Position numbers and translations under genes: made by a program
Notes under the pieces: model-generated
The model's input: only the letters and a program-made list of their open reading frames with translations
The model's database searches: none
Told to the model about the DNA's origin: nothing
Shown: positions 15,471 through 64,000 of the stretch, one piece after another
Layout: each line of letters starts with the position of its first letter
How positions within the stretch are numbered: the stretch's first letter is position 1
Virus record (IMG/VR): IMGVR_UViG_3300008113_000017
From: an uncultured virus (IMG/VR IMGVR_UViG_3300008113_000017)
Taxonomy: Duplodnaviria > Heunggongvirae > Uroviricota > Caudoviricetes
DNA: 64,000 nt
Direction: 5' to 3' (one strand)

Positions 15471-15471
15471 A

Positions 15472-19065: not shown

Positions 19066-19401
19066 TTGATTGATAAAAGACCCGGCGAGTCACTTTGGTC
19101 TGAGTGGTTTGGTGAAGGCTACGAAGTTAGTAGACTCAAGCCCCTCATATTTTTTACTGAAGAGCACGTCGATTTATCCCATGACCTAATTAAAAGAGCT
19201 CTTGCATCATCTGTGCAAAGAGACGGATCAGTAGATTCGCTAAGTGAAGCATTTCATTTAGTGGAACGCGGGAAAATCACTCATTTATATGCCGGTGAAA
19301 TTGATGGAGAAGTTTATTTAACAATCTGCGATGAAAACGGAGAAACTGAATACGGAGATACCGTAGATCAGATCATCCCAATTACCATCGTGGAGCTTTA
19401 A
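19066..19401 (+). CDS. Hypothetical protein
   Basis: ORF preceded by a TG-TAGGAT -10 box and coupled to the next gene. Confidence 0.65.
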   Translation: MIDKRPGESLWSEWFGEGYEVSRLKPLIFFTEEHVDLSHDLIKRALASSVQRDGSVDSLSEAFHLVERGKITHLYAGEIDGEVYLTICDENGETEYGDTVDQIIPITIVEL

Positions 19402-24600: not shown

Positions 24601-24635
24601 AAAAAGAGCCGGGTCTTTTAGATCCGGCTTCTTTT
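24601..24635. terminator. Bidirectional terminator between primase and resolvase
   Basis: AAAAAG-AGCCGGGTC-TTTTA-GATCCGGCT-TCTTTTT. Confidence 0.75.
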
Positions 24636-25285
24636 TATCTATCCACGATATTTTTGACCGTGGTGGCGTACCACTTCCCACCATTTTGGGTGGGGATATT
24701 GTCCTTATTGAGACCTAAAGCTATCTCCCTGTAAGACTTGCCAAGCTTTCTTTCCGCTTTGATTCGATCTTTAATCTCGTCTGAAGTTTTATTTTTAGGC
24801 CCCATATCGACGCCCCACTTGATTCCACGGGCTCGTCTATCCTTGTGAACGTCCTTTTGACGTTCTGCAATAATTCCACGTTCCATCTCTGCTAGGGCGG
24901 ACATAATTGTGACCACAAACCGGCCTTGATAGCTAGCTGTGTCCAGATTTAGATCTAGCATGACTAGACGCCATTTGTTGGCATTTGCCCTGTCTATAAT
25001 GCTCAAAAAGTCCTTCGTAGAGCGGGCTAAACGGTCGATACGCGTCACAAAAAGGGCTGAAGCATCCCCAGTGTCTAATCGCTTTAAAGCGGCTGTAAGA
25101 GCCGGACGGCCCGTAATTGACTTACCTGAGCGACCCTCTTCTCGAATTAGCTCATAATCAGTAAATCCAGCCACTTCAGCAGCATTTATAAGCTGTCTTT
25201 CCTGGACGTCGAGAGAAACACCGTCATTTACTTGAAGCTGGGTCGATACACGGGCGTATAAAAGAGCTTTACCTGGATCTGTCAA
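24635..25285 (-). CDS. Serine recombinase (resolvase/invertase type)
   Basis: YARVST, GRSGK...RPAL, RIDRLARS and ALAEMER motifs; C-terminal HTH. Confidence 0.95.
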   Translation of the reverse strand: MTDPGKALLYARVSTQLQVNDGVSLDVQERQLINAAEVAGFTDYELIREEGRSGKSITGRPALTAALKRLDTGDASALFVTRIDRLARSTKDFLSIIDRANANKWRLVMLDLNLDTASYQGRFVVTIMSALAEMERGIIAERQKDVHKDRRARGIKWGVDMGPKNKTSDEIKDRIKAERKLGKSYREIALGLNKDNIPTQNGGKWYATTVKNIVDR

Positions 25286-26825: not shown

Positions 26826-27026
26826 CTAGCAGTCGTAAGTCCAAGTAAATGGGCCTTGGGCGTCTACTGGAGAACAAGTTGCTCCCAAACCAAAATCTGC
26901 AGCTGCGCAGATCCCAGTAGAAGTGCAACAAGCAAGAGACACTTGAGCACTTGTACAGTATTTACCGGAAGTCGGGGCACCAGCCGATTTATATGATCCT
27001 ATAAGTCCTTGCACGCAACCAGCCAT
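26826..27026 (-). CDS. Small Cys-rich protein, possible fibre-tip partner
   Basis: TAATG coupling to the fibre stop; MAGCVQGLIGS start; 7 Cys in 66 aa. Confidence 0.6.
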   Translation of the reverse strand: MAGCVQGLIGSYKSAGAPTSGKYCTSAQVSLACCTSTGICAAADFGLGATCSPVDAQGPFTWTYDC

Positions 27027-33000: not shown

Positions 33001-36000
33001 AAAAATAACTAGCAGAACCAGCCGGGCCTCCAAGATATAAATTTCTAGTAGTGGAATCAAAGCCAATTCCAGCCCAAGAGTTGTAGTTCCAGTTATTACC
33101 ACTTTCAAATCTAAGTTGATTTAGATTTCTAATATTTATTTCTTTATTGCCTTGATACCCTAAAGTAGTAGTCCCAGGAAGATTTAAATATGGAGTAGAT
33201 CCGCCAGTCGCATTTAGAGTGAGACTTGTGGATATAGTTGGGCTAGTAGCAAGAACAACGTCTCCAGTTCCAGTGTAAGTACTAAAGTCTGTAAGACCAG
33301 CTTCCCAGTTGGCTGCACCGGTTCCTGCGGTTGCAATACAAGTAACCATTGCAGTAGTTCCAGGAATAATTGTAAATACTAAGTTTCCACCAGAAGAGTT
33401 AACTGTTAAGTTAGCAGTGCTGTTGTTAACAATGTGGAATGTCCAACCAAGAGCTAGGGTGCTAGTTACAGGAAGAGTGATCGTTTGAGCAGTACTTCCA
33501 GTGAATTGCTGATAGTAAGTGCTACTGTTTGTTAGAACTACTGGAGTTCCAGATGTGACCGTGGTAGTAAAGCCAGTCAAAGCTGTCAAAGATGCAGAAG
33601 ACGTTGTAGATGTCAGGTTTCCGCTAGCATCTACCTTCACAAATCCGGCAGTACCACCAGATAAAGCTCCAACCTTAGTAAGAGACGAGTTAACTACGCT
33701 AGATCCTAGGGTAGTTGCAGTTAAAACAGAAGTTCCAGCAATGTCGTACGAAGTTCCAGGAGAGACAATGTCTATGTCCTGGTTTGAAGTCCAAGCATCA
33801 GTAGCATTGTACCAATTCCAAGTTTTATCCGGAGCGGTTCCCTTTACAGTAATACCTGCGCCATCGGCCAAAGCATCTGATGGGGATGCTGTACTTGCAA
33901 GTTCAATATTTTTATCATCAACAGTAATGGTTGTGGAATTTACAGTAGTTGTAGTTCCATTAATAATCGTGTTTCCGTTAACAGTCAAAGTTCCAGCAAC
34001 TACAACGCCAGCAGAAGTTACTGTCAATCTATCGGTATTTACGTCTGTATATCCACCACCAGAAACTACAAACTTTTTAGATTTTATTTGAACAACAGAT
34101 TGACTAGAAGACTCGTCCCAGTATCCAGCAATAAGGGCATATTCTTCAGCAAAAACATAATCAGTTAAACCGGAGTGATATTTTTTATTAGCAATTAGCT
34201 CAAAACCAGAATCCCTATCACCAGTAATAGTTTTTAAAGACGATACGAGATCTACATAATCTCCACCATTATTTATGTATCTATATGTACCGCTAGTAAC
34301 TGTCAAGGTTTCATAGTCAGTAGGGAGAACTACCTTTGATGCTAAAGAATCAGATGTAGTTACATTAGGAGAAACAAGCATAGATCTGCTGAAATTAGAC
34401 TGCTTAAATCCAACGTAATTAAAGTAGTCTAAAGATGCAGTTTGAGTGTCAAGGTCTACGTTTATCCACTGTTTGGTGCCTTCAATAGAGGCCTGAGCGG
34501 GGTCGTAACTTGGAACTAGATCGGTTGTAGAGTACCATCTAATATTTGGAAGGCTGCCTCCAAAAAAGCTTTTATTAGTTGTGGATACGTATAAGTTATC
34601 TATTAAATATGAAAAACTAGTAATCTTTGTTGGAGATCCGCTAACATAACCCGCTCCATTGTGGGTATACATCCAACCAGGGATATCTATGTAGATATCT
34701 GCTTTGCTTGCATAGTTAGTGCTGTCAAGAGTCTTATATTTAATTGCAAGTTTATTTGCATCAATAATTATTGAATTAGATTTTTCCATATACGGAATGC
34801 CAATAGCCGCATCATGGTACCCAAGTGAGTAAAGTATAGGGTCAGAAATTAAATATTTACCGGTTCCGGCGTCCCAAAGAGCTTTAGTTTCTACAGATAA
34901 AACATCATAAAGATTTACAGTAGACCCGTTGCCAAAACGTAGTCTAATATCAGAAAGATTAAATGCAGCGTTTGTAACTGTATAAATATAGGCAGACCGA
35001 GTTCCGTAACCATCATCTCCAAGATCCACAGTTGTATTTGGATTACGTATTTCATCGACTGCAACAAGAGTTACATTGTCTTCAAGAGTATCCGTAGTGG
35101 TGTACCCAGAATCTATGTAAAAAGTAGTAGAACTTGGAGCAGGAGAAGACAAGACCGTCTGTGTTCTTGTATAACCACCAGTAACATTTTTTCTAGTTAT
35201 GCGTCCTAAATACTCTCCAAGAAGAGAGTCAAACTGGACACCGTCAAAATCTAAAAGAACGGTGTCTCCACCAGACAACCCGTGGGCACCAGAAGTGTCA
35301 ATTTGCCAATATAAAGCTCCACCAGGGCCGGCGTATCTTGAAACAGACGTAGGGACCGATCTGGTTGATGTGTACCTAGGAAATACTGTAAGACCTAAGT
35401 ATAAAACTCTACCAAAATCATAAAGATTGTACTGATCGCCAACTGTGTAGTCTAATTTTCCAGAAAGATATGTAGATAACGCGCTAGACCAAATAGCCCT
35501 ACCACCGTAGTTGCTATCGTATTGGTATTGAGGACCAACTCCACCATCATTAAATTGCTCAGTAGCAAAAGTTATTCCAGCACCAGCTGTCCAAGAAGAC
35601 GTGCTGGCTATTCTAGATCCTCCGGAGTTTATGTACTCAAAACTTGGATTTTCTAGTAAGTTTACATCTTCAGCTGAAACGTAAGCAACACCAGTATTTG
35701 AGAAGTACCCATAGTCAAATTCAGATTTTGAGTAATCACGCAAATAAAGACCAGCGACATCTTTATTGTAAAAAGTTACATAGCCCTGAGACTCCGAATC
35801 AGCTACATCAGTGCCGGTGTTGCTGTAGCTAATAGTTCTATAATCTACATCAGTTACCTGTACTTTTTCACCGTTTGAGTTAAATGTAGTGTCATCTTCA
35901 AGACCAACAATTATGTAGTCCCCAACAAGAATGTCATGACCTTCAATTGTTAGAGTAGCAACGTTACTTGTACGACTTTTTCTAGTAACGTCGTACGGGT

Positions 36001-36436
36001 CTGGAGAATAAGATTTAAATAGTGCAACATAACTACCTGAAGTAACGTCTTCATCGTTATCACCAAATCCAGAGCTTTCAAGAAATGTTCCAAGAAGCGT
36101 GGTAGATCCGATCACACGAGTAACTGCTGGGCTAGAGATATTCCAATAACCAATTGCACCGGCATAGGCAGTTATATCACCACGAACAACTACGCTTCCA
36201 AACTCAGCATCACCGTTACCACTGATTCTCCAACCAGCTTCTCCAGCAATGTAATTACCACTTTGTATGGCTTTTTGAATAATCTCTAGTTCTTCAGCTA
36301 GAGCAGATTCACTGACGGCATTAGCAGCAATTGAGTTCGAGTACTCGGTTCTGTACTCCGAGTAACGAGATTTTTCATCTAAGTAATTTAGATAAGAACC
36401 AATACTACGATTTCTAGAAAGTCTATTACTACCCAC
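27026..36436 (-). CDS. Giant modular tail fibre/adhesin (3136 aa)
   Basis: GNYIAGEAGWRISGNGDAEF anchor; G/T/S-rich; repeated RG...Q.ADLQ.WQ modules; C-terminal WIISGNGLT. Confidence 0.9.
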   Translation of the reverse strand: MGSNRLSRNRSIGSYLNYLDEKSRYSEYRTEYSNSIAANAVSESALAEELEIIQKAIQSGNYIAGEAGWRISGNGDAEFGSVVVRGDITAYAGAIGYWNISSPAVTRVIGSTTLLGTFLESSGFGDNDEDVTSGSYVALFKSYSPDPYDVTRKSRTSNVATLTIEGHDILVGDYIIVGLEDDTTFNSNGEKVQVTDVDYRTISYSNTGTDVADSESQGYVTFYNKDVAGLYLRDYSKSEFDYGYFSNTGVAYVSAEDVNLLENPSFEYINSGGSRIASTSSWTAGAGITFATEQFNDGGVGPQYQYDSNYGGRAIWSSALSTYLSGKLDYTVGDQYNLYDFGRVLYLGLTVFPRYTSTRSVPTSVSRYAGPGGALYWQIDTSGAHGLSGGDTVLLDFDGVQFDSLLGEYLGRITRKNVTGGYTRTQTVLSSPAPSSTTFYIDSGYTTTDTLEDNVTLVAVDEIRNPNTTVDLGDDGYGTRSAYIYTVTNAAFNLSDIRLRFGNGSTVNLYDVLSVETKALWDAGTGKYLISDPILYSLGYHDAAIGIPYMEKSNSIIIDANKLAIKYKTLDSTNYASKADIYIDIPGWMYTHNGAGYVSGSPTKITSFSYLIDNLYVSTTNKSFFGGSLPNIRWYSTTDLVPSYDPAQASIEGTKQWINVDLDTQTASLDYFNYVGFKQSNFSRSMLVSPNVTTSDSLASKVVLPTDYETLTVTSGTYRYINNGGDYVDLVSSLKTITGDRDSGFELIANKKYHSGLTDYVFAEEYALIAGYWDESSSQSVVQIKSKKFVVSGGGYTDVNTDRLTVTSAGVVVAGTLTVNGNTIINGTTTTVNSTTITVDDKNIELASTASPSDALADGAGITVKGTAPDKTWNWYNATDAWTSNQDIDIVSPGTSYDIAGTSVLTATTLGSSVVNSSLTKVGALSGGTAGFVKVDASGNLTSTTSSASLTALTGFTTTVTSGTPVVLTNSSTYYQQFTGSTAQTITLPVTSTLALGWTFHIVNNSTANLTVNSSGGNLVFTIIPGTTAMVTCIATAGTGAANWEAGLTDFSTYTGTGDVVLATSPTISTSLTLNATGGSTPYLNLPGTTTLGYQGNKEINIRNLNQLRFESGNNWNYNSWAGIGFDSTTRNLYLGGPAGSASYFSFNSDPERVIFNLVGLSTFNSDAKNTVLESRGTNTRLIVKAKTRTATVSNVSGNGTTVTYTTSTAHYMDAGDVVTITGVNPGAYNLTSVTIATVPSQTTFTVTNAATGAFVSGGTATVTQANNLQEWQNASGTVIANISPQGGVRATGTLQGATISAVSDGSTVATLASLKNIQLGGGSASLGGGSGVIGISNATTVPASLPTGGGILYVDTGALKYLGTSGSAQNIVSADGTINFTGDVSATGGLYPGKTAYGFSVSSGAPASTTYWKIATLPISTAGTFDHIIVDAVLDDNWGSVAKARARVLLSNRNAFTYRYYLEGTVRVSARIVTYTETNGSVSVYLQASSGQYTTFSYNITHGIDSSTIIYKNPASTTTAPTGTLSFDSGVIATYVPEMYIPYTGQPIIRGLVSSTGVVSGTSFVKSGGTSSQFLKADGSSDSNLYLATNTSSNLYGSSYFAGHNPEGRFMYNAYLANDMANARLRGSTVSATQNGVSYSISNANWDAMFDGTASFFNISPTSGFTFPLVITVPLPRTLTYGTWVGLSFGSSTFRANSVTIEVFSLDSSSWVTVFTTTTNTSEDIFAAVSGLTNGNATGINQIRYTISSPNSTQLRIQHLWAYNFNSDMWSTSMMPRAGGSFYGPVTNTTSNSGQTPLIVKAPLTPTVDVFQIQNSGGSPQVRVDTSFYAWSVGWVLNGSLGSFEAAFGGALLAMKKTTSTVTNPAADFARFYVEDGTTAGTLKLAARTGTAGVEEGLIDNMSSTGSTAGAQFIGAGGVNTIGRIITSTTTSGFGVSSTPTAWGGFTPTVEIRGSSSSIVGINFFMNGGPFIRAYDGSGNARGAWAADGSVVVGQSNTKLGTLSVYTDASGTVGLVVRGATSQSADLQRWQNNAATPETLSKVDYLGRMYIPGGTTIYDYAVESAGATDTAWKKLIEVTAPTGLYTGASYQVDVVDNFDNYGIAGSSNTPQTFKFYVKITRSMGTQDDVLAAVVLGPSVNYVRVVKTSSSLYEIQVRQPDVYRVVSFKVRKIVQNNTTESYTPSGKTYLGLDAGSTTGTIYVPVNDSATFSNFVVENFSQLSSNRLFVQPITGSTNATVPVTIRGASGQTGNLQDWQSWNGSTATTLASIDSSGRFNSTTAGNFGGISVGLAFLGVQTSANTWGLAVRGGALQVNHLSVLLNSSGTTLGGVNANGQLFSGSAQPLTTSTGGATTATSGTGSVATITTTSNHNLASGDRVTVAGVTPTGYNGTYIVTGTPTTTSFTYNNATTGAQTVAGTVAIDAQASIVARSAATTPFILRAAVNQGVNMLRIEGSGGSAVITMDAAGGAFFAGTITHNGFYQNFNNMLTSGNMTIGLNSSASGVQLGVYSTSTTNVGAIIRGANGQTADLQQWQTWNGTTATTVALVTSAGALTLKPVANAANQSRGILLSNTSDLWQSGLYLKSDGSGNPRLTLLAPTGALGEAISIDAAAKVGIGNTAPIAQLDVYSQLSTRIGVVIRGAASQSADLLVGQDNSGNTTLFSVASSGALFTNSTLFTTAQTYVYGAADYGAALNVQTRATGSQGIIVRGRSGQTVNLQEWQTSAPSTVASVSQTGKGTFDVLNAPNGAFFGNLTAQPGNGAYLAVQAYSSAQRPFMVRGFGAITANLVDYQDGSAAIVGGRSGVGQIFTGSIAPLTTSTGGATTATSGDGTTATITTTNNHNLAVGDIVTVAGITPTGYNGTFSVASTPTTTSFTYANTTTGSQTVAGTVRVYAQASSVSRSAATVGLIVRAAASQVTDIQQWQISDGTVRAYITADGSFLTSSTLTTMGNLRVAGTAGTGGGSGVIGIANAGTVPSSNPSGGGVLFVESGALKYRGTSSSARTIVNADGTDPNPLDGTTSTAAAGAGFMGLPQNSTTTGSYTIVAADAGKHIYASATRTVTINSNTNLALPIGTTLTFIAGSGATMTIAITSDTMYLAGTGTTGSRTLAPFGMATAVKITSTSWIISGNGLT

Positions 36437-52309: not shown

Positions 52310-54106
52310 TTAAAGCTCGATAGTAGCTGCGGCAGTGCTGCCAGTGGTGTCGCGCAGAGCTGCGGCTACACCGTTGATGCTGATGGTTGAGGTGATCTTG
52401 AGAGACTCAATACCAACCTTTGCAACAGCCTCGAATGTTTCAATGAACATCTTGTAGTCGTTTGTGCCAACAAGAGTGCTGTCACGAATGATTCCAAGGT
52501 CCAAAGTTCCACCGTCAAGGAACAAGAATGTACCCTCGGCGAATAGGTACCAGTCAAACTCGTCTGGGAACTCAAGAAGTGCGGCAGCACTCTGTGAACC
52601 GAAGACGGTCATGTCTGGAGATGATACTAGAGTTACGTTGCTGTGCGATAGGTAACCATCAATTTCTGACTTAGAAACTGATAGAGTGCCATCACCTGGC
52701 ATTGCCAAGGTTAGGTCAGCTGCCATTGCATCGTATACCCACTCAGGAATGAAAGCCTGAAGCTGGGTGTTTGGGTCGATGCGGTGACGGTTACGGTAAG
52801 CAACAGCTGCACGACGGATCTGTACTAGGAAGTCACGACCAAAACCAATTAGGTTAGTGGTAGTAACAGCAGTAGAACCGTTGGTTAGCTGGCTGAGTAG
52901 GTTCTGCTCAGCTTCACGAGCGTGCTGTACTAGAGCCAACTCGTTGTGACGAGCGATCAACTCTGGGTAAGCACGAGTCATCAAGTTACCGAACTGTAGC
53001 TGTAGGGTTACAGCGTCAGTTGACTTGGTGTTTTCAGCAGCAGCTGAAACAGTCAAGCTGGTCTTGGTGGCTGGGCTTGGAGTAGTAGCTGAGTCGTTTG
53101 TTGCAGTCCATACACCAACAGCGTTAGCATAAGTGCCAGCTGCGAATGAAGGTGGAGTAACGAAACGGATACCACCACGGTCAGCCTGGAAGCGAGGCAG
53201 AGCATCGCGTAGAGGACGAACGTTGGTTGAACCGATCGAGTAGATGTCATACTTAACCTCGAACGGAGCTGCGTGACCACCAGAAGCAACAAGTGCCTCA
53301 GGTCCTGCAACTGCAGCGATCTTCAAAGCGTTAGCTTCTGCATCGGTAGTTAGAGTACGAGCCTCTGGGTATTCGGTTGTTACGGATGCAACGATGTGCT
53401 GCTCTCCGTCTCCACCGTTGACACGACGTAGAGAATGAATTCTCTTCTCCATAGCTACTGCTACTTCGCTCATGTCAGCAATGGTTGATCCTGCGCTGTA
53501 ACCAGGAATGTCAGCACCAGCAGTAATAGTTACTGGAGCTTCCTTAACTTCGATTACAGGCTGGCGATCAGCTGGGGCCTCGAAAGGCTGTTCTGCTGCT
53601 GCGGTCACTGGGGCCTGCTCTTCCTGCTGAACTTCGTCAGCGGTAGTGGTTGTTTGGGGTTCTTCGGTTGATAGTTCAGATCCTTCAACCTGAGTCATTG
53701 ATGCGTCCGAGGTTTCGGCTGAGTAAGCCTTCTTCTTTTCCTCGTCCTCTTGAGCTGGAGTCTCTACGACTTCCTCCACTGGAGCTTCCTCCATTGGGGT
53801 TTCTTCAGCTGGAGCTTCTTCAACTGGCATATCGCCAACTGGAGCCTCCCCGTCCTCGCCAGTAACACGCATAGTCGCTTCGGCAGCACGAGCAGCAAGC
53901 TCTTCTTTAGCGGCCTCGCGACGACTGGTTTCACCGCGTACGGTGTCCAACATGTCGGCAAGTGACGTCATAGCGTCAACAACCTCAGGAGTAGTTTCTT
54001 TACCTTCGACCAATTCGAATTCACGGACGATTGATTCCTGTAGAGCGGCAACTTGCTCGTCGCTTAGCTCTGCCAGTCCATCGACCTGAGATTTAATGTG
54101 GTCCAC
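52310..54106 (-). CDS. Major capsid protein with N-terminal scaffold (hexamer-type)
   Basis: Acidic helical N-third; ALVASGG..AP....YD, RP.RDALP.F.A.RGGIRF and GT...LDGGTLDLGI.RDS.L...ND motifs; AGGAGG RBS. Confidence 0.9.
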   Translation of the reverse strand: MDHIKSQVDGLAELSDEQVAALQESIVREFELVEGKETTPEVVDAMTSLADMLDTVRGETSRREAAKEELAARAAEATMRVTGEDGEAPVGDMPVEEAPAEETPMEEAPVEEVVETPAQEDEEKKKAYSAETSDASMTQVEGSELSTEEPQTTTTADEVQQEEQAPVTAAAEQPFEAPADRQPVIEVKEAPVTITAGADIPGYSAGSTIADMSEVAVAMEKRIHSLRRVNGGDGEQHIVASVTTEYPEARTLTTDAEANALKIAAVAGPEALVASGGHAAPFEVKYDIYSIGSTNVRPLRDALPRFQADRGGIRFVTPPSFAAGTYANAVGVWTATNDSATTPSPATKTSLTVSAAAENTKSTDAVTLQLQFGNLMTRAYPELIARHNELALVQHAREAEQNLLSQLTNGSTAVTTTNLIGFGRDFLVQIRRAAVAYRNRHRIDPNTQLQAFIPEWVYDAMAADLTLAMPGDGTLSVSKSEIDGYLSHSNVTLVSSPDMTVFGSQSAAALLEFPDEFDWYLFAEGTFLFLDGGTLDLGIIRDSTLVGTNDYKMFIETFEAVAKVGIESLKITSTISINGVAAALRDTTGSTAAATIEL

Positions 54107-54244: not shown

Positions 54245-57200
54245 TTAGGTCAGAAGCCTTAGAAGCTTGTTGAACTCTCTGGATATATCAGATTGTCCAA
54301 ATAGCTTAGATCCTGACTTAAAGGAGCGAATTTCTTGGGTAGCGATATCCGCGTCCTTTGAACCAATCTTTTGCTCAACCCTGCTTGTCATATCATCAAG
54401 TAGATCTTTCAGAACAGGGGGGAGGTCACTATATCTAAGTTTCGCGTTTGGATCCTTAAATGGTAGTGGCAGGTTGGCAATTGTTTTACCTAGTTCTTGC
54501 GTAGTTAAACGTATGTTTTCTAGAGATTTAGCATTTAAGGCTCCAGTGTCAAGACGATCAACAGTTCCAATGAGATCTGACGCGGCTTTAGCAGCCGTAC
54601 CATAGTCACCAATTTCTGTATAACCTTCTGCCTGAGCCACTTTTCTAGCTACACTCTCTAGACCAGCAACACCTAGGTTAAGTTTTAGTCTGGCTAGTAC
54701 CTTACGGAACTTTCCATACTCGTCTCGCGGTTGGTTCTTACCAGGGACGTACTTATCTCCATCTTGAGCATAAGGGCTTATGTCGGAGTCTTTTTTAACT
54801 TCTTCAATAACCTTCTGCTCAATTTCTTCTTGAGTAAGACGCTCATCCACTGGTTGCTTCTCCATTACTGGCTTGTCTTTAGGCTGAACCCCGAGAGGTT
54901 TATCTGCCTTAACAGGAACAGTAGGGAGAGGATTTACAGGACCAACCGCATCAGTTTTTCCCAGGGCCTCCACAGCCGCTGCAACACGAGCACGAAGTTC
55001 ATTCGGCTGGGTTGAAGCTGTGATTGACTCTGAAGTAGAAGCAACGTGTTGCTTGTGCCACTTCTCTGGGATTAGATCTGTTTTGCCAAGAGCCTTAGCA
55101 CGACGCATAATGTGGCGACGAACCTTGTTTCTTTCAGATTCTTTTGCACGGCCGAATGCTTGAATAGCATTCTTCAGATCCTCTTCATTACGAATAGGAT
55201 ATGCTCCGTCTGGAAGAGCCTGACGCTTCTTTACGGCTGCATCGCGCTCTGCCTTGGTAATAGCAAAGTTGTCAACGTAACCATAAACCTTGTTTGACAA
55301 TTCAGCACTCCTGGCGGAAAGAACAGCTGCTCTTTCGCTACGGAATGCGTCAAACCTAGCTTTAGCTGCGGCAACCTGAGCATCTGGACCATAAAGTTCA
55401 GAAGCTTTTAGTTCAGCTAGAGGGCGAGCACCAGCTGCAACAAGGGCCATTACAGCACCTGATGCGACACGGGCACGGGCGATTGGGAAGCCAGGAACAT
55501 TAACCTGGCAGACAGCTACAAGCTCAAGTGAGCCACGGATTGGACGCCAGTCACCTGAAGGAGCAGATGCACGAAGTGCACGTACTTGCTCAGGGGTTGC
55601 GGATGGGCGAAGTCCACCGGCGACCCAGATACCATGTGCATCTTCTCCGGCATGTACGTCAGCAATTGCTGATGCAGTGTCGTCGTAGTGCTTAACGGCG
55701 TCTAGTGCGCTAGCTTCTAGTGGGGCATGGCCTCCCGCAAGCGTGAGTTGACCTACTGGTACATCCTTACCATTGGCAGTGCGAACAACGCCAGTGTGGA
55801 AGTAAGAGTAGTTACTCTTGCTACGGGGAGGTTTGGTGCCGGCTACCAAACCGATATGATCAACGTTCCAAGCTGCAATGTGACCAAAGACTCTACCATC
55901 GTCAGTAACGGTGATAGGGGTAGGTTTACTTAGCTTAGGATTGTTAAACCATTCAGCAGGTGGCACAACCGGGATAGCTCCAGCAACTACAGCGCATGCA
56001 ACAAGCGATGCTGATTCTGGAGAATCCAGGTCTTCGGCATAAATTCCATCTTTTGGAATCATACTTTCCTCCTGGGGGTTTGCTTCCTCTAATAGGAAGA
56101 TCTTGCATTCTTGGAACGCGGGCTTTGGCACCATAGTGATTGCCATTACCCGAGCTTTGTTGATAGTGAGTTTGTCTCCACCAACTTTTTTGTCGTCATC
56201 GATATCGATGTCGTTCTCAGTCTTAGCTTTAGAGTCCGATTTCTTTTTCTCTTCTTCAGCTTCAAACTGATCCATATCGGCTGATACGCCACGGATAAAT
56301 CCGTTGCGAACCAGACGTTCGGCTTCACGCCCGTACTCGCCGGTATCAAATACGCCAAACGCGTTTCCAATACCTTCTTCTGTACGCTCCATTCGGTCAA
56401 TACGACCGACTACGACGGACCCATTGTGTCCATCTGAAGTTCTAACTTGCCACAGCAAAGGAAGTGGCAGCTCACGCATAGTTATAGAACCTTTACGGAA
56501 AGTACGCCCGTCTCCAGTCTCTTTTCCTTCAGGAATAACTAGCGGAATTCTAAATGATGACCCACTTCCGCCCGCTACTAAAGGAGCAGCCGCAAGAAGT
56601 CCAAGTCTTTGTTTAGCGTTGTTTGATCGGGCTAAAAGTTCTAACGAGTTTATAACCATCTCGCTTGATTTAATGACATCGCTACTAAACATAGCTTTGT
56701 TACCGCCACGGCCTTTTCTACCATACATCTCTCTATGACGCTTGTCTCCGGTCCACATGCCAGTCATTTCTTTGTGGCGTAGAGCACAGTAACCTTTAGC
56801 ACGTGGGCCTAGGTATTTTTCAAGTTGTCTTACGCAACGAGTCCAGTCACCCTTGGTGTTCCATCTAATCTTTAGACCACCCTTACCAACAGTCCAGTAG
56901 CGGCGTAATTCTTCTGCGTTACCACGGTTGCGATCTAAGCCACCGGCTGCAACAAGAATTTCTTCTCTAGGACCCCAAAGAACCATCATCTCGTATTGAA
57001 GATACGCTGCAGAGGCAGTGATTCCATCTACTTGCTTTAGAACATCATTTAAAGTTGCGGAATCAAGTGGGACTACAGGTGGTGGAGTTGCTGACTTAAG
57101 ATCAGAAAGAGTTTTTTCGTCACGAACCCACTTCTTATCTAAACGACGGTAAATCATAGGAGCCGTAGACGTTGAGCTAGCTGGCACCATACTTACAAGA

Positions 57201-58999
57201 TCTAGCACAGCCTGAGGGTCGTCCGGAGCAACAATAGCAAAATATAGAGGCTGAACGTCAGAAGTTTCAGGAGTTAGCTGGACTGGCTTTCCTGGATCTT
57301 TTGGGGTTGGACTACTTTTAGGTGCGCCTTCTGGCTTAGCCTCGTCTTTTTGAGTTTCTGTTACCGCATCAGTTGCAGGCTTTTGAGCTTCAGCTATTTC
57401 AGCTGGAGTATTAGGTGCTGCAACCATTGCAGAAGCAACAACAGGAGATGCCCAGTTATTGTCAGTCTCTGGTTGCATCTCATCGCGTTGTTTTGAAGCA
57501 CGCCACTTTTTTAGAAGCGGGTGATCATAAGATTCTATTCGCTCTTCTTTTTCATCTCCAGCACTTGTCATAGGAGTTTTGTAGTCTCCTGGAGAATAAG
57601 AAGCACGTTGGCTTTGTACCCAAGCCGGGAAGTCATAAAGAACTTGGTGTAGATCTTCCTTAGTCATTGCAGGAAGTGTGCCAGAAATTCTAGCGTTTGG
57701 TCTATCTATTGGAGTACGAGGTTCACCAAGAATTCCAGAAGTATCTAGGGGACCTTCAAGTATTTCTTGTGGAGGTAGCCCAGATTCGGCTCTCTTTCTT
57801 TGCTCTTCTAGACTAATTCCCCCAGGCTTACCTTTGGAAGCTTCAGCACCCTGAGGTGTTGCACCTTGCTGTCCTGGTGCAACACTTTGCTTTCCAGCAG
57901 TAGTTTTTCCAGTATTGCCTTTGCTACCAAATCTTCCACCAGCAGCCCTAGGTTGTTTTGCAACATTTGCCGAACGTTCTTTTGAAGTATAGCCAGGCGT
58001 ACCCATACCGCCTTCTCCAGCAGCAACCATACCAAGATCAATCATCTCCCAGTCTTCTTCTGGAATTGATCGGGCAGCTAGCATAGCTTCGTCTTTATCT
58101 AGGTCAAAAACAGAAACTTTTCCATAAGGACTACTTGCAAGTCTTGCTGCCATCAGTACAGCAGACGAAGGATCTATTAATATATGACTTTTTTCTATGC
58201 CGTCATCTTCAAAGTCAAGCTGCTCGTCATAGTCCCAAACATCGTGGTCAACATTACCCATGTCATCCCAGCAGTCGTTATCCCAAACGTAGACTTGCCC
58301 ATCAATGTCAACTTTGTATAGACGATCTAATCCAGACCCATCCAAACAAACTCTAGCCATAAATTCTGGGCCATAATTTTCTTCCAAGTCAAAAGCATTT
58401 TTAAATGGATCAACTGGATTTTGAGACATTAAGTATCCATCAGCTTTCATAGCTTTAGGATCTGCGTGCTCTACAATGTCAGCGGCCCAACGCCAAGCGG
58501 AATCCCCGCCCCACAGCGCCCACGCTATTCGTCCGTTAGAAGGGAAGTTGTCTTGGCCAGGCTTCCAACCCTTACCCTTTTTGTCAACTTCGTGACGCGG
58601 GAAATATTTTGCTATATGGCGGACTTTTTGTAGACCTATCTGTCCGCCGCGAGCCAAGATACGAGCAGTGTTAAGGCCAACAGGAGTGCCGCCACGCTTG
58701 TGCTCTTTACGCCACTCAAGTGCTTTTTTAGCTTCAGCCTGAGCAGCTTTAGGAATTGTATACATACGTCCAGCAGCAGCTGTTATAGATTTTGCATCTA
58801 AAGTTTGGAGTGCTATATTAGCAAGAGATGCTTCATTTGAGTAAAGATTCCGATCGGCTTTTTCCCATTTTCTAGAAGAAAATAACTCCTCGGGAACACC
58901 TGACTCAACAACCATGTTGAAGTCAGTATCGACAACTACACCATGATGGTCGCTCGTAAATAGGAGCTGAGACCCAGATTGGCCGATTAATGTGATCAT
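54245..58999 (-). CDS. Multidomain capsid maturation protease
   Basis: PEG.ETGDGR.F...LPLPL.WQ...GH..SVVVGRI...GVSAD...T.V..PAF protease core at ~56100-56550, plus several accessory domains; directly upstream of the MCP. Confidence 0.85.
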   Translation of the reverse strand: MITLIGQSGSQLLFTSDHHGVVVDTDFNMVVESGVPEELFSSRKWEKADRNLYSNEASLANIALQTLDAKSITAAAGRMYTIPKAAQAEAKKALEWRKEHKRGGTPVGLNTARILARGGQIGLQKVRHIAKYFPRHEVDKKGKGWKPGQDNFPSNGRIAWALWGGDSAWRWAADIVEHADPKAMKADGYLMSQNPVDPFKNAFDLEENYGPEFMARVCLDGSGLDRLYKVDIDGQVYVWDNDCWDDMGNVDHDVWDYDEQLDFEDDGIEKSHILIDPSSAVLMAARLASSPYGKVSVFDLDKDEAMLAARSIPEEDWEMIDLGMVAAGEGGMGTPGYTSKERSANVAKQPRAAGGRFGSKGNTGKTTAGKQSVAPGQQGATPQGAEASKGKPGGISLEEQRKRAESGLPPQEILEGPLDTSGILGEPRTPIDRPNARISGTLPAMTKEDLHQVLYDFPAWVQSQRASYSPGDYKTPMTSAGDEKEERIESYDHPLLKKWRASKQRDEMQPETDNNWASPVVASAMVAAPNTPAEIAEAQKPATDAVTETQKDEAKPEGAPKSSPTPKDPGKPVQLTPETSDVQPLYFAIVAPDDPQAVLDLVSMVPASSTSTAPMIYRRLDKKWVRDEKTLSDLKSATPPPVVPLDSATLNDVLKQVDGITASAAYLQYEMMVLWGPREEILVAAGGLDRNRGNAEELRRYWTVGKGGLKIRWNTKGDWTRCVRQLEKYLGPRAKGYCALRHKEMTGMWTGDKRHREMYGRKGRGGNKAMFSSDVIKSSEMVINSLELLARSNNAKQRLGLLAAAPLVAGGSGSSFRIPLVIPEGKETGDGRTFRKGSITMRELPLPLLWQVRTSDGHNGSVVVGRIDRMERTEEGIGNAFGVFDTGEYGREAERLVRNGFIRGVSADMDQFEAEEEKKKSDSKAKTENDIDIDDDKKVGGDKLTINKARVMAITMVPKPAFQECKIFLLEEANPQEESMIPKDGIYAEDLDSPESASLVACAVVAGAIPVVPPAEWFNNPKLSKPTPITVTDDGRVFGHIAAWNVDHIGLVAGTKPPRSKSNYSYFHTGVVRTANGKDVPVGQLTLAGGHAPLEASALDAVKHYDDTASAIADVHAGEDAHGIWVAGGLRPSATPEQVRALRASAPSGDWRPIRGSLELVAVCQVNVPGFPIARARVASGAVMALVAAGARPLAELKASELYGPDAQVAAAKARFDAFRSERAAVLSARSAELSNKVYGYVDNFAITKAERDAAVKKRQALPDGAYPIRNEEDLKNAIQAFGRAKESERNKVRRHIMRRAKALGKTDLIPEKWHKQHVASTSESITASTQPNELRARVAAAVEALGKTDAVGPVNPLPTVPVKADKPLGVQPKDKPVMEKQPVDERLTQEEIEQKVIEEVKKDSDISPYAQDGDKYVPGKNQPRDEYGKFRKVLARLKLNLGVAGLESVARKVAQAEGYTEIGDYGTAAKAASDLIGTVDRLDTGALNAKSLENIRLTTQELGKTIANLPLPFKDPNAKLRYSDLPPVLKDLLDDMTSRVEQKIGSKDADIATQEIRSFKSGSKLFGQSDISREFNKLLRLLT

Positions 59000-59231: not shown

Positions 59232-62200
59232 TTACTCCTCATCTTTGGATTCATCAGTAGATTTTTGAACAGCGTTTCCAATACTATATCCGTCCAGAGG
59301 GCTCCAGTCTCCGAGCTCTGTCCCAAGAATATAGTCTACAGCTTTTTGAGCCTGGCTAGTTGCGCTAATGATCTCATCTGGGTTAGATTTTAGGTGCTTT
59401 AGCCAACTTTGAACGTAAGCTGCACTATTATCAAATACTGCATCAACGCCAAACATATTACCTAGAAGAGCGGCTCCAATTTCAGCAATAAGTTCTTCTC
59501 TAGCTCTGGACTCTAGATCTGTTTCATAGTCTTTAGTTAGATCTGATCTATCTAAGCGATTTGGATGACCAGTGCTGTGTACCAGCTCATGGGCAATGGT
59601 ATCAAACAGATCTTCAGGAGATTCAAACTGCTCTAGATTAGGAAGGGTCACTTGGTCAGAGATAGTTCCCCAGCTTGGTGCTTGGTGAGCACCGCCAACT
59701 CCAACGTACTTGTGAGTGACGTTAGGTGCTTTTCCAGTTCTAGCGGCCATAGCTTTCTTGTATCTTTCAACAATAAACTCTTGTGCATCCAGTGGAGTCA
59801 TCTTAGGAAGAGATTCTGTAGAAAGATCAGGCAAGTTTAGACCATCAATCTGTTCAGCATTGAATACTGCCATAGCTTTGAACATGGTGAATGATCTAGT
59901 CTTATTTGGGTCTTTCTCATCCTTTTGGACTATACGCATAGGAACAAGAATGAATGTACCCTTCTCACCCTTACGGACTTGACCACCCATCTGCTCTGCC
60001 TGCTTATAGGTCATCCATCTAGGATCGCTGTACCCGTTTTCTTCTTGAGCAAATCTAAGTGCCATTGCGTTAACACCAGAGTAGATATGCTTAGAAGATG
60101 GGTTTCTAGGCAGACCCATACCAGCGTACTTTTCGCCTTCTTTATAAGGTTTACGCCAAGGAGTCTCGCCCTGCTTAATCTTTTCAAACAGGCCGGCCAT
60201 AACTTTTTCTGTGGCAGTTTTGCTGTCAGAAACGACTTTCTTACCAGTACGACTCTTACCACCAGGCTTTTGAGCAAAGCCAGTTATTTCTGGGTTTTCA
60301 TCAGATCCCGGGGTTCCAGGCGGATAAGCAGAAGGAGCATCCTCTGGTCTTAAGTTCGTGTCAGGGTTCCAGCTACGTGGGCCAGGATATCCTGGAACAC
60401 CAGCCTGCTCCATCATGTCAACAGAGCTGTTAATCCATGGAGGAAGAACATCATTACCTAGTACAAAATCTACAGCTATCTCTGCTTCGGCCATAGCTTT
60501 AGTTATTTCAGCGTCACTTAAGCGGTGAGATTTTAGGTACTCAGCTGTTCTATTTGGATCATGGTTAATTCCTAGACGCTGTAGTAACAGCTGTGATGCA
60601 ATTTCAGCCACAGCTTCTTCCCTAGCTCTTTGCGGATCGGTAACACCTCTTCCAGCAAGATGGCCTTCTCTTCCAAGTCTACGTCTAGTTCCGCTAGCAT
60701 GGGCAAGTTCGTGGAATAGACTGTATAGATAATCCTCCGGACTATCGTACTTACTTCTATCCGGAAGCCTAATTGATTCAACACCTTCACTTACAGACCA
60801 GAATGGAGTTATAGGTTTTCCTTTATTAGGTCCTTCTTTTGTCTCAATACCAATCAGATCTTCGTAGACCTTTAGTCTTCCAGATCCACCACGCTTCTTT
60901 TCAGCTTCAGCAAATCTACCAAGAACGAATTCCAAAGCCTGAGAAGCTGTCATTTTTTGCTGCTGCTTAGGGTTGTATGGCTCTAATCCATCCATCTGAG
61001 CTGCGTTAAACACAGTCACAGGAGTCTGAACAAGTACACGTTCTCCGGTATCCTCGTTTTCAATAGTGCGGAATGTCATAATCCGAACACCCTGCTCACC
61101 ATCACGTATCTTTGCGCCCATTTTTTTAGCCTGAGCTACAGACATCCATCTTGGATCTGTATATCCTCTCTCGGCTGCAGCTGCGGCAAGTGCGTGGTGG
61201 TTTATACCACTGTATTGGTGCTCTGAAGATGGGTTGAATGGCATGTTGCTAGGATTAACCGGAGCAGACATTGGGTCTTCAGCAGGATACTCAGAGTATG
61301 GTTTGTCGTAATCACCTGTACGATATGGCCTAGGGTTTTTAATACGCTCACGGAAAATGTCAAGCATCTTGGCTGCAGCTGATTTATTATCAGCTACGGC
61401 TTTAGCTTTCTTTTCTTCAAAAGTTTTAGCTGGAACGGTTTCAGATGGAAGCGTTTGAGCAAAGCCATCTACATCTTCACCGCCCCTAATTTTGTCATCT
61501 TTTAGTGCAGCGTCTGCAGCATCTAAATTATCAGTAAAGTCTTTAGCAACCTTATCAACGGTAGGAGCTTCAATAGCTTTTGGAGTAGCTGGTTTCTTTG
61601 GCTTTAGATCTTCTGGGTGATTTTTCTTCCAACGATCTTTAGCAATTCTTGCAGCAAGTTTTGCTTTCTTAATTGCAGCAGATAGCTCAGAGATAGCAGC
61701 CATCTTCTCTTCAACGCCCTTAGACTTCTTCAAGTTGTCGATAGCTTTTTGTAGATCGGCTTTGACGTAACGCATGTTGTTTACGAATTCGCCGACGTTG
61801 TTTACATCTTCACGAACCTTGGAGGTCTTACCCTTCCATTCGTCAAATAGACCTAGGGCGTTGCTTAGCGAAGCTATAGCCTCTAAAATACGGTGAGGAC
61901 GCTTAGGTTGTTTTCCACCAAGCTGAGCAAATCCAGCTTCATCTACTCCAGCAGGAAGTATTTGAGTGTTTTTACCTGGAGTTTGTGCAAAACCTACGTT
62001 ATCTGACTTAGTGTTGTCAGGGGTCTCTACTAGGTCGAGCTCTACAGTTAAGTTTCCATTTGAATCTTCTTTAACTGAAGTAACCTTAAATTTTGAATTT
62101 CTTGGTAATATAACTTCATCTTCAGCGTATCTAGATAATGCAGACCCCATAGAATATCCGGTTAATTTAGATCCTTTAGGCGAAAGTGCATATGTTATTG

Positions 62201-64000
62201 ATTTGCCAGTAAGTCGATTTCCGGTGAGTGCCTGTACAGGATTTACAAATAAATCAATCGAGTTTAAATCTGTAGAAGTTGACATAAAGCCAGGGTCAAT
62301 AAATTCAGCTCCAGGGACTAAAGCCTTTTTAGCTTTTTCAAAGTCATCTAGTCCCCTACGAGATTCACCAAGTGTAACTACTTTTCCATCACTAAAAAAC
62401 TCTCCTCTAAACAATCTAGAAGCTATTAGGGGATTTTTTGAAGTTAAAGAGTCTAGCCCACGGACTACAGATTCTTGATCTTTAGGAACAGGTGTACCAG
62501 TCCTTAATGCTTTATTTATAGGTATATAAGCTGCACGAGTGCTATATTTTCTAGCAGCACTTGACTCATCTTTTGTAATAACATCTTTTGAAGATAAGCC
62601 TTTAGACAGATCTGCTGGTGGAGTAAATGTAGATTTTCTAGCTTTAAGTTGTCGCCAATCAAAATCTCCGGACTTCATTTTAAAGAAATCGTTGTCAGAT
62701 AGGAAATAGTATCCAGCCTGAATTACGTCAAACGTATCTGCATTTTCTTCATCTTCTTCATCAGCATCTTCATCAAAAATAGATTCGTTTAGACTAATAC
62801 GATACAGTCCAGTGTTAGAGTCGGATGGATTTCCGGTTACTTGATCAAGAGTAATTCCTGTAAACTCTGCTTCATCACTTCCAAGAACTTCTTTACCGGG
62901 TTCTGCATACCTGCTAGTTACTGATCTATTCAAATCCTGAAATCCTAGGGGAAGAGTGTCACTGTCAATAGACACATTAAACTTAGTCTTGTCCCCACGT
63001 TTTAAAGTTTTATTTTCCAGTGTTACTGTTCTGCTACCGTCTGAAGACTCTACAGACTTTCTAGAAGACTCTAATTTTTTATCTTCTTCGGCAGCTTGCT
63101 CACGTAGTTTTTGTCGTAAATCCTCTCTAGCTGCTTGTAATTTTAAAAATTTTGAACTATTTGTATATTCTCTAGTGTCTTCATAAGACACGTAATCATC
63201 AATTTCAGCACCTTCAAAAGGTTTTTTTGGATCAGCATTAAGCCTTTTTTCTAAAGATTCTTTAGTTACAATTGCATATTCCGGAGCTATTCGCTCTGCT
63301 TCAACAGCTTCCCACCCAATATCATCTCCCTCTTGCATCTCGTATTCTTCTTTAGACAATCCATTTTCATCTAATTCAACAGGGTAGTCGTTATCTTTAA
63401 ATTCTTCGGTTCTAAAAATAAATTTATCTTTGTCTTCTTCTTTACCAGTGATGTCAAATAAAGTTACTCCAGTGTACCTAGATGGAAATCTTTCTAGCCT
63501 AGGTTCTTCACCAAAACCAATATCGTCACCGAGATAGTCTGTGAATCCAGTGACTCCCTCAAAATGTTTTTCATAATCATCTAGCCCGGTGCCCGACTCA
63601 TAAGATCTGTCAAGTGGATACCAATCTCCTGGATTAATTTTGTTTCCGGAAGATAGAGTTATAGGAGTGTCTCCAAATACATCTCCCTGTACCTTGTTAA
63701 ATCCAGGTTTTCTAGGTTTAGAAAATTTTCCTTCTTTTTGAGCAAAGCCGTCGTAATCAACGGTGTCGAACTCAGCGGTTCTAAGCATGATTTGACGTTC
63801 AGCTTCTTTAAAAGCTTCACTTGCGTCAATTCCAAGATCTACTTTTTCTTTAGGCTTGTCGCTAAAAGTAGCGGTAAATCTGCCACCCTTTTCCAAAATG
63901 TCGGTGACTAGACCGTTTTCCTCACGAGTCCAACGACTAATGTCTTTTTTAGCGTCTTTCTCTGTAGTAGCATCTACAAACTTACGTTCCGCCGCTGTTT
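59232..64000 (-). CDS. Giant polyvalent protein (5'-truncated): VIP2/Alt-like ADP-ribosyltransferase plus two ArdC-N/zincin (MPTase) modules
   Basis: Frame is open to the window edge; ART motifs Y..IN..LR, LFRG, GFMSTS, EDEVILPR; two copies of P.NP.S.H.YSG.N...L...YxDPRW...QA...G...R.GE.G with HELAH/HELVH...RAREE..AE. Confidence 0.9.
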   Translation of the reverse strand, partial: TAAERKFVDATTEKDAKKDISRWTREENGLVTDILEKGGRFTATFSDKPKEKVDLGIDASEAFKEAERQIMLRTAEFDTVDYDGFAQKEGKFSKPRKPGFNKVQGDVFGDTPITLSSGNKINPGDWYPLDRSYESGTGLDDYEKHFEGVTGFTDYLGDDIGFGEEPRLERFPSRYTGVTLFDITGKEEDKDKFIFRTEEFKDNDYPVELDENGLSKEEYEMQEGDDIGWEAVEAERIAPEYAIVTKESLEKRLNADPKKPFEGAEIDDYVSYEDTREYTNSSKFLKLQAAREDLRQKLREQAAEEDKKLESSRKSVESSDGSRTVTLENKTLKRGDKTKFNVSIDSDTLPLGFQDLNRSVTSRYAEPGKEVLGSDEAEFTGITLDQVTGNPSDSNTGLYRISLNESIFDEDADEEDEENADTFDVIQAGYYFLSDNDFFKMKSGDFDWRQLKARKSTFTPPADLSKGLSSKDVITKDESSAARKYSTRAAYIPINKALRTGTPVPKDQESVVRGLDSLTSKNPLIASRLFRGEFFSDGKVVTLGESRRGLDDFEKAKKALVPGAEFIDPGFMSTSTDLNSIDLFVNPVQALTGNRLTGKSITYALSPKGSKLTGYSMGSALSRYAEDEVILPRNSKFKVTSVKEDSNGNLTVELDLVETPDNTKSDNVGFAQTPGKNTQILPAGVDEAGFAQLGGKQPKRPHRILEAIASLSNALGLFDEWKGKTSKVREDVNNVGEFVNNMRYVKADLQKAIDNLKKSKGVEEKMAAISELSAAIKKAKLAARIAKDRWKKNHPEDLKPKKPATPKAIEAPTVDKVAKDFTDNLDAADAALKDDKIRGGEDVDGFAQTLPSETVPAKTFEEKKAKAVADNKSAAAKMLDIFRERIKNPRPYRTGDYDKPYSEYPAEDPMSAPVNPSNMPFNPSSEHQYSGINHHALAAAAAERGYTDPRWMSVAQAKKMGAKIRDGEQGVRIMTFRTIENEDTGERVLVQTPVTVFNAAQMDGLEPYNPKQQQKMTASQALEFVLGRFAEAEKKRGGSGRLKVYEDLIGIETKEGPNKGKPITPFWSVSEGVESIRLPDRSKYDSPEDYLYSLFHELAHASGTRRRLGREGHLAGRGVTDPQRAREEAVAEIASQLLLQRLGINHDPNRTAEYLKSHRLSDAEITKAMAEAEIAVDFVLGNDVLPPWINSSVDMMEQAGVPGYPGPRSWNPDTNLRPEDAPSAYPPGTPGSDENPEITGFAQKPGGKSRTGKKVVSDSKTATEKVMAGLFEKIKQGETPWRKPYKEGEKYAGMGLPRNPSSKHIYSGVNAMALRFAQEENGYSDPRWMTYKQAEQMGGQVRKGEKGTFILVPMRIVQKDEKDPNKTRSFTMFKAMAVFNAEQIDGLNLPDLSTESLPKMTPLDAQEFIVERYKKAMAARTGKAPNVTHKYVGVGGAHQAPSWGTISDQVTLPNLEQFESPEDLFDTIAHELVHSTGHPNRLDRSDLTKDYETDLESRAREELIAEIGAALLGNMFGVDAVFDNSAAYVQSWLKHLKSNPDEIISATSQAQKAVDYILGTELGDWSPLDGYSIGNAVQKSTDESKDEE

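Follow-up and report, generated by a model that had tools for sequence, protein, structure and literature searches.

In the accessible passages of the study of polyvalent proteins by Iyer et al. (2017; PMC5512222), these chains hold 2 to 15 domains each, ArdC-N, MPTase, ADP-ribosyltransferase (ART) and ParB-like domains are named as network hubs, and release of the domains by embedded MPTases is predicted, with an analogy drawn to the polyproteins of RNA viruses; the passages searched mention neither a cleavage motif nor a frameshift. Here we analyze an open reading frame (ORF) at the end of a 64,000-nucleotide stretch from an uncultured tailed virus (IMGVR_UViG_3300008113_000017; the whole stretch is called the window below), in which the tetrapeptide GFAQ recurs, together with the giant gene to which this frame belongs. 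Among better-known systems, T4 gp21 cuts the IP proteins and phiKZ gp175 the inner-body proteins, a cargo that is injected with the DNA. The Gag-Pol and ORF1a/1ab polyproteins gain a protease-containing enzyme part by a -1 frameshift at an X_XXY_YYZ heptamer followed by a structure, after which site-specific cleavage takes place, and in the polymorphic toxins the exchange border is marked by VENN in CdiA and by PxxxxDPxGL in Rhs.

The giant protein analyzed here belongs to the polyvalent proteins described by Iyer et al. (2017). Like them, it joins many unrelated effector domains in one chain (at least two unrelated effector-type domains characterize the group; here there are ParB-like, ART, two ArdC-N and two MPTase domains and ~18 unassigned modules), and its gene stands among late or head genes, being part of the head module, as suits a late or virion context. 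Unlike those described in the accessible parts of PMC5512222, it comprises ~25 modules set off by a defined 7-mer and would receive its enzyme-rich tail through a -1 frameshift.

A heptapeptide delimiter at the borders of exchangeable modules

The ORF lies on the minus strand (59232..64000, stop codon at 59232-59234) and, according to the ORF list and its translation, runs off the window end at 64000. An initial annotation of the window had noted five GFAQ copies in it, held them to be conserved at the protein level and estimated the sizes of the units between them. All five copies are present on the minus strand (Table 1); their codons vary from copy to copy (GGC/GGT/GGA, GCT/GCA, CAA/CAG), which agrees with conservation of the protein, and the copies follow one another at distances of 585, 20, 156 and 395 amino acids (aa) with a tail of 349 aa after the last, in accordance with the estimated sizes. 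GFAQ is the sole tetrapeptide with five copies in this ORF, against 0.0126 expected from the ORF composition, and outside this ORF it was found in none of the six frames of the 64-kb window. Chance and low complexity were ruled out as its origin by the expected counts and a DNA-level repeat by the varying codons; a tandem-repeat origin was also rejected, the modules being mostly not related to each other.

The picture of a five-copy tetrapeptide holds for the window ORF and had to be widened in two respects. The upstream continuation was read in a 92.7-kb virus record (G001), 100% identical to the window over 59232-64000, where the window ORF forms the C-terminal 1,588 codons of the second frame of a giant gene; ORF1, the first frame, and the second frame were analyzed separately throughout and never joined. 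The whole gene is ~3x larger than the window ORF and bears ~25 delimiters of the form G-[FY]-x-Q-x-[PA]-G, 18 in ORF1 and 7 in the second frame. In addition, the motif is indeed repeated, but its conserved unit is the 7-mer G-F-x-Q-x-[PA]-G, in which the third position, A in GFAQ, is variable. In an alignment of 65 GFxQ copies from four proteins, where G, F and Q are fixed by the search pattern and the G at +6 lies outside it, position +6 is G in 61 of the 65 copies, position +5 is P or A in 56 of 65, and position 3 is A in 38 of 65.

The two frames hold 23 GFxQ sites against 0.5 expected. For the remaining 132 ORFs of the window and G001, 29,063 aa in total, the count is 3 and the expectation 2.5, and none of these sites has a PG tail. 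With a position-specific scoring matrix derived from 70 copies, true copies scored a median of 26.6 and any other ORF at most 9.9; by this matrix and by the pattern GFxQxPG, the capsid, portal and protease proteins and all other ORFs of the phage were free of delimiter-like sites. The relatives P0006 and P0007 contain 18 and 25 G[FY]xQ copies, respectively, and some tandem delimiter copies are only 6-22 aa apart. The terminal PG of the motif also brought to mind ribosome skipping of the 2A type, in which a P must come after the terminal PG; this origin was ruled out, the residue that follows the delimiter being variable and P never required.

When the proteins were cut at the delimiters and all pieces were compared by BLAST, the best alignment started at residue 1 of both pieces in 17 of the 22 segments of this phage's protein with a BLAST match, and the 5 exceptions comprised paralogous domains within larger pieces or a relative without a delimiter at that place. 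The modules, mostly 95-330 aa in length, are gained, lost or duplicated between relatives as whole cassettes, with three DUF2188-like modules as an example of duplication. In a near-identical strain, the second-frame protein (P0009) is missing precisely the 605 aa that separate the GFAQ copies at 63738 and 61923, that is, the ART unit with the 20-aa spacer, between flanks that are 98% and 94.5% identical; the ART unit is missing from P0007 too. Two AlphaFold models, one of second-frame residues 1020-1779 (mean predicted local distance difference test [pLDDT] score 60.7) and one of first-frame residues 1940-2560 (mean 46.0), put 7 of the 7 modelled delimiters in coil of pLDDT<50 that separates structured units; the former model is of moderate quality, and the latter is poor and counts for little. 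The initial annotation had proposed to look for the motif at domain boundaries once the full gene and its homologs were recovered, and had named burial of GFAQ in folded domains as evidence that would speak against its idea. In the recovered sequences the motif recurs at the borders of heterologous, exchangeable modules, and all seven modelled copies fall in predicted flexible linkers. The motif is a delimiter of exchangeable modules in a phage polyvalent protein, and our literature searches turned up no account of such delimiters in proteins of this class. It resembles the VENN and Rhs junctions in being a short conserved peptide at the border of exchanged cassettes; those proteins, however, have one junction before a single C-terminal toxin, whereas here ~25 junctions are distributed among heterologous modules.

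A separate observation concerns L015, the record of a variant of this phage with an out-of-frame deletion (8360-8380). The deletion starts within the delimiter that follows the ART unit; the encoded protein stops after GFAP, and the helical unit and the two ArdC units stand in a different frame. The variant may represent a natural mutant or an assembly error.

A predicted -1 frameshift and the enzyme-rich tail

The ORF described by the initial annotation (59232..64000) stands, but the upstream two thirds of the gene and the predicted -1 frameshift that joins the ORF to them had been missed. In G001, the second frame stays open for 190 further codons upstream of the window. Its first ATG, GTG or TTG is a GTG at residue 90, which falls inside a ParB-like domain located by PHROGs at residues 41-128 of the open frame, so that this frame would have no start of its own. 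Directly upstream lies ORF1 (3,341 aa), in the +1 register relative to the second frame, which ends ...tcC CCA AAA gcg taa. The C_CCA_AAA within it is a canonical zero-frame X_XXY_YYZ heptamer that ends 2 codons before the TAA; it is followed by a spacer of 6 nucleotides (nt) and a 5-bp, all-GC hairpin (CCCCC-GAAAA-GGGGG), and a -1 slip at this heptamer enters the frame of the window ORF directly. In-frame X_XXY_YYZ heptamers are few in ORF1, only 7 per 3,342 codons. Taken as a whole, the 106-nt slip-site region folds no better than its shuffles (z -0.91).

The slip junction is letter-for-letter identical in the records of four further metagenomes (L006, L012, L015), which makes five metagenomes in all. 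The distant relative L018 retains the heptamer together with a 6-nt spacer and an all-GC hairpin of 5 bp, while the flanking protein at the slip site differs (...TSTPNPKA before the stop, against ...RRGANSPKA here). P0006 has the identical C-terminus ...GANSPKA, from which its lineage presumably has the split gene as well; a metagenome scan with the slip site returned only the same phage, with no DNA of the P0006 lineage among the matches. Heptamer, spacer and hairpin, conservation and a startless -1 frame, sequence features expected of a programmed -1 frameshift, are present in the predicted signal, and judging from the sequence we conclude that the window ORF would be made only as a -1 frameshift extension of ORF1, in a product of ~5,100 residues and ~560 kDa, the ORF1 product alone having 370 kDa. 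An alternative genetic code and sequencing error were ruled out as causes of the frame break, since the junction is found in five metagenomes and the signal in L018.

As in the retrovirus and nidovirus polyproteins, an X_XXY_YYZ heptamer with a downstream structure would extend a cargo chain by a protease-bearing part. Unlike those systems, the setting is a double-stranded DNA tailed phage, the protease is a zincin and not an aspartic or 3C-like enzyme, cleavage is at present a proposal, and a relative, P0007 (4,795 aa), encodes the fusion without a frameshift, both parts forming one continuous ORF. As a further observation on L018, the first part of its giant gene (GLDQ lineage) is broken by a single in-frame TGA at 10665-10667; the stretch GLDQAAKSVSDRDR just before this TGA recurs 158 residues earlier, and the break may represent readthrough, a duplication scar or a nonsense mutation.

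The content of the tail had been read correctly from the translation alone: the ART and the two ArdC modules named by the initial annotation were recovered by Pfam as one ADPrib_exo_Tox, two ArdcN and two MPTase-PolyVal domains, each scoring better than its curated cut-off. The ADPrib_exo_Tox domain contains the ART motifs in the proper order, R (LFRG, 62403-62414), STS (62274-62282) and ExE (EDE, 62115-62123), which we take to be the R-S-E catalytic motifs (C3/VIP2-like). With all motifs present, the unit is a predicted member of the R-S-E ADP-ribosyltransferase family. The helical unit that follows had no family match.

Both terminal units are predicted to be of the ArdC type, with ArdC-N followed by an HExxH zincin; ArdC anti-restriction proteins shield entering DNA against type I restriction. 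The HExxH is intact in each (HELAH and HELVH), and the H-E-x-x-H-x-x-G-H of the second unit is invariant in 15 of 15 aligned sequences. This second unit also matches PHROG 7245, an anti-restriction protein (E 1e-111). Pfam scores of 167 and 152 bits for ArdC-N and zincin compare with cut-offs of 22.6 and 27.5. The modelled ArdC folds match ArdC of R388 (PDB 6i89/6sna; Foldseek E 4.6e-15). Both units hence share Pfam domains, fold and HExxH with the R388 protein, and differ from it in forming a tandem that closes a giant head-module protein, with a delimiter in front of each unit.

Genomic context, relatives and sister codes

The genes of the region run on the minus strand in the order large terminase, portal, ferritin-like protein, giant gene, 1,584-aa protease protein and major head protein, and continue downstream on the same strand with the major tail protein, adaptor, tape measure and minor tail proteins. 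The initial annotation had called the 54245..58999 product a protease, and PHROGs did find a head-maturation protease domain in it; Pfam gave no match for this protein. In phage DSL-LC01, its homolog is annotated as three consecutive 'capsid maturation protease' coding sequences (L010:20001-24920) and may be split or frameshifted. The Dps-type ferritin-like gene between portal and giant gene is unusual for a head module.

The most conserved part of the giant protein is its N-terminal ~400 residues, referred to here as the anchor domain, which is common to the giants encoded at this genomic position. Its identity is 35-39% in DSL-LC01 and the Microbacterium phage Cece (35% over 346 aa in DSL-LC01, with Cece aligning over ~105 residues only), and it is present in L018 too. 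Pfam returned nothing significant for the anchor domain, ORF1, the DSL-LC01 giant or the Cece giant, and a Protein Atlas look-up with the anchor domain gave no usable match. Cysteine is absent from the 3,341-aa ORF1 product (P0005) and from the translated second frame, in comparison with 0.99% in the other ORFs; the single Cys of the second open frame lies upstream of the slip site and would stay untranslated. P0006, P0007, P0012 and the Cece giant likewise contain no Cys, and the DSL-LC01 giant contains 2. From these traits we infer that the giant protein would be anchored in the head and travel unfolded or through the tail.

A WhiB-like regulator gene is found at window positions 19401-19895 (+), and the closest cultured relatives are the Actinomycetia phage DSL-LC01, from lake water, and phages of Microbacterium, Arthrobacter and Gordonia. 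Together these suggest an actinobacterial host, and the virus is an uncultured lake phage, probably of actinobacteria. ART genes have been reported in freshwater actinophages in the accessible part of PMC6802176. Elsewhere in the window, a 3,136-aa ORF downstream of the minor tail genes (27026-36436, minus strand), without a PHROG match, presumably encodes a very large tail fibre or a protein for host recognition, and the minus strand further encodes a ribonucleotide reductase (4759-6792), a ferredoxin-family protein (830-1528) and a serine recombinase/invertase (24635-25285).

Table 1. Delimiters, units and neighboring proteins, in window positions unless a record is named
Feature	Position	Strand	Basis or remark
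GFAQ(KEG) delimiter	63738..63749	-	Upstream end of ART cassette; left end of 605-aa strain indel
GFAQ(TPG) delimiter	61983..61994	-	Motif search
GFAQ(LGG) delimiter	61923..61934	-	20 aa past previous copy; downstream end of ART cassette indel
GFAQ(TLP) delimiter	61455..61466	-	pLDDT<50 coil in model
GFAQ(KPG) delimiter	60270..60281	-	pLDDT<50 coil, model residues 412-418
ART-containing unit (585 aa counted from its delimiter)	61995..63737	-	PHROG 3895
ADPrib_exo_Tox domain	62034-62585	-	Pfam E 7.7e-12; 45.4 bits vs curated cut-off 23.4
Helical unit, ~155 aa	61467..61922	-	82% conserved in P0007
ArdC module 1: predicted ArdC-N/Tc-38-like single-stranded DNA-binding domain and zincin	60282..61454	-	Pfam; HELAH 60699-60713
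ArdC module 2	59235..60269	-	ArdcN 59862-60215 (Pfam E 2e-49); MPTase-PolyVal 59352-59669 (E 8e-45)
HELVH (HExxH of ArdC module 2)	59577-59591	-	Motif position
1,584-aa head protein with head-maturation protease domain	54245..58999	-	PHROGs 18402, 859, 21470
Head-maturation protease domain (residues ~1008-1202)	~55394-55978	-	PHROGs
Major head protein	52310..54106	-	PHROG 777, E 1.9e-81
372-aa protein with N-terminal ferritin-like (Dps-type) domain	L002:11382-12500, outside window	-	Pfam E 7.5e-17
(L/F)SSG(K/R) proteins	L013:4191-13388; L014:505-7491 and 9061-15489		Tetramer counts

The occurrence of the delimiter is narrow. Among 1.84 billion representative proteins, a profile built from 43 delimiter windows matched 7 at E up to 0.001, five of them belonging to the clade (P0005, P0006, P0008, P0009, P0128) and the other two (P0129 and P0130) being unrelated tandem-repeat proteins. 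Among the 120 large ArdC/MPTase proteins listed by a search with the ArdC region, real delimiters were found only in the five closest (P0008-P0012); 2 more had two lone GFxQ sites without the tail, and 113 had fewer than two. The motif as a general trait of ArdC/MPTase proteins was ruled out in this way, 113 of the 120 listed homologs not being flagged, and as a general trait of phages with the same protease protein it was ruled out by the DSL-LC01 and Cece giants, which are without it.

Sister lineages bear related codes. GLDQxA[KPS] is present 10 times in L018 and occurs also in P0013-P0015, and DLxQ is present 7 times in P0131, whose anchor domain is 31% identical to that of this phage and whose C-terminus, ...FSKKA, may reflect a slip site of the same type. 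What stays invariant across these lineages is a hydrophobic residue, any residue, and Q. In proteins otherwise unrelated to this one, a different peptide, (L/F)SSG(K/R), is found 9-11 times each (counted as LSSG or FSSG tetramers) in the polyvalent proteins P0025, P0026 and P0058 and in the viral loci L013 and L014, at a spacing of 100-400 aa and flanking an ArdC unit. In L013, the gene of the punctuated protein comes after the portal gene, and a prohead protease domain forms the start of the protein; the first domain of P0025 is Peptidase_S78, and in L014 two copies occur also in the next large ORF. Lineage-specific codes of this kind are what co-evolving pairs of protease and site would give.

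Candidate readers of the delimiter

The explanation that we favor regards the window ORF as the tail of a virion cargo polyprotein of ~5,100 residues, composed in order of the ~400-aa anchor, ~18 small acidic modules, the -1 frameshift, the ParB-like domain, the ART cassette, the helical unit and the two ArdC units. G-F-x-Q-x-[PA]-G would precede each module, in a flexible linker, as a protease recognition code. The chain would be packaged and then injected, which we regard as probable for this cargo, and cutting at the delimiters after assembly or injection would yield separate effectors for anti-defence and takeover. As its reader, we consider either of the two ArdC-type MPTase zincins within the chain the most likely; the frameshift would supply them in sub-stoichiometric amounts, as in Gag-Pol. 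That the chain is cut at its delimiters, by whatever protease, seems to us rather probable; that an embedded MPTase does the cutting we propose only tentatively, at somewhat less than an even chance; and a self-contained Gag-Pol-like system, in which a frameshift-dosed ArdC zincin cuts the chain at hydrophobic-x-Q into ~25 injected effectors, is possible in all its parts together, though doubtful.

In favor of the embedded MPTase, the code is found only in the chain to which the zincins belong, and an ArdC/MPTase tail is present, or probably so, in all delimiter lineages examined, in frame or behind the same slip signal; for P0131, the tail is only suggested, by the C-terminal ...KKA. The DSL-LC01 and Cece giants share the anchor and are followed by the same protease gene, and lack both MPTase and delimiter. 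This pattern, although correlative, leans toward the protein's own HExxH domains over the prohead protease. A number of points weigh against the proposal. The association of MPTase and delimiter is small and phylogenetically dependent, and the co-occurrence is biased, most delimiter proteins having been found by an ArdC query and the lineages being related. The arrangement is present in no cultured phage, and the ArdC matches in the phage collection were all in unrelated phages. In the monomer model with the ArdC units, neither delimiter was placed in the HExxH cleft, and both models are weak (mean pLDDT 60.7 and 46.0). P0007 does without a frameshift, and Gag-Pol-like dosage is therefore not essential. 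The hydrophobic-x-acid pattern of the T4-type prohead proteases has a spacing that F-x-Q shares. ArdC units are widespread as stand-alone anti-restriction proteins, and the peptidase may just serve the ArdC function; we know of no substrate of the ArdC peptidase. Finally, according to the accessible parts of PMC5512222, the MPTase proteins studied so far, namely N4 vRNAP, ArdC and TraC1, are transferred without being cut.

The nearest competitor of the embedded MPTase as reader is the head-maturation protease of the 54245..58999 protein, which would cut after F-x-Q inside the prohead. It is encoded in the gene adjoining the giant gene, which itself belongs to the head module, and the invariant hydrophobic-x-Q has the spacing of the T4 rule (L/I-x-E, cut after E) and of the phiKZ rule (S/A/G-x-E, likewise). 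The delimiter can be likened to these short rules, with P3 hydrophobic or small, any residue at P2 and a fixed residue at P1, although the fixed residue would be Q here and is E in T4 and phiKZ. In those phages, moreover, the rule operates in capsid and scaffold proteins as well, whereas here the motif is found in no other head protein: the capsid, portal and protease proteins and the other ORFs lack it, so that the protease would need another rule for its usual substrates. The (L/F)SSG(K/R) family speaks for such a protease, with a prohead protease domain at the start of the punctuated protein in L013 and as Peptidase_S78 in P0025, and with the code extending into a second large ORF in L014. 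The DSL-LC01 and Cece phages speak against it, as their protease proteins are 51% and 42% identical to this one and their giants, encoded at the same place, show no over-represented motif. The accessible passages of Iyer et al. (PMC5512222) do expect assemblin-like peptidases to process polyvalent proteins. On balance, we consider the prohead protease an unlikely reader.

The delimiter could also stay uncut and act as a repeated docking, packaging or ejection tag, bound many times by one partner such as the scaffold, the inner surface of the capsid, the portal or a chaperone, or as the string between beads during passage through the tail. A conserved linear motif in flexible linkers, an acidic and cysteine-free protein typical of translocated proteins, the module size (mostly 95-330 aa) and the uncut travel of the studied MPTase proteins, as far as the accessible parts of PMC5512222 describe it, would all suit such a role. 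Against this, giants with the same anchor and head genes manage without any tag, tandem copies 6-22 aa apart would make poor bead spacers, and sister lineages alter the flanks and keep hydrophobic-x-Q, as the subsites of an enzyme would demand. We know of no precedent for a single chain with ~25 identical docking tags, and we hold a tag to be an unlikely function. Still less probable is that the delimiter is mainly an evolutionary joint for the swapping of cassettes by recombination, with no biochemical reader. The ART cassette indel between near-identical strains does end in two GFAQ copies, whole cassettes do come, go and duplicate, and the natural L015 deletion does start within a delimiter; but that deletion ends within a module and out of frame, the varying codons leave only ~8-12 nt of identity between copies, and purifying selection on seven residues across proteins that are 57-70% identical implies a reader at the protein level. 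Service as a joint is in any case compatible with cleavage and is not an alternative to it. A host protease that reads the motif after injection is very improbable: the confinement of the motif to candidate injected cargo is the sole point for it, and a code that differs among closely related phages is better matched by a phage-encoded reader than by a conserved host enzyme.

Polyvalent proteins are thought to be a main route by which phages and plasmids deliver many counter-defence activities at once, and the release of their domains has so far been a prediction only, which a defined delimiter makes directly testable. The delimiter is a candidate substrate for an ArdC-type metallopeptidase; if cleavage by the embedded MPTase proves true, it would be the first defined substrate of the unexplained peptidase domain of the ArdC/MPTase proteins and would give that domain a role, and other polyvalent proteins would carry cutting codes of their own, for example (L/F)SSG(K/R). 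The delimiters also set off ~20 small modules as discrete units and in this way supply a list of anti-defence candidates in phages whose hosts are abundant, uncultured actinobacteria of fresh water. The second code in unrelated polyvalent proteins suggests that punctuation of this kind is a general principle.

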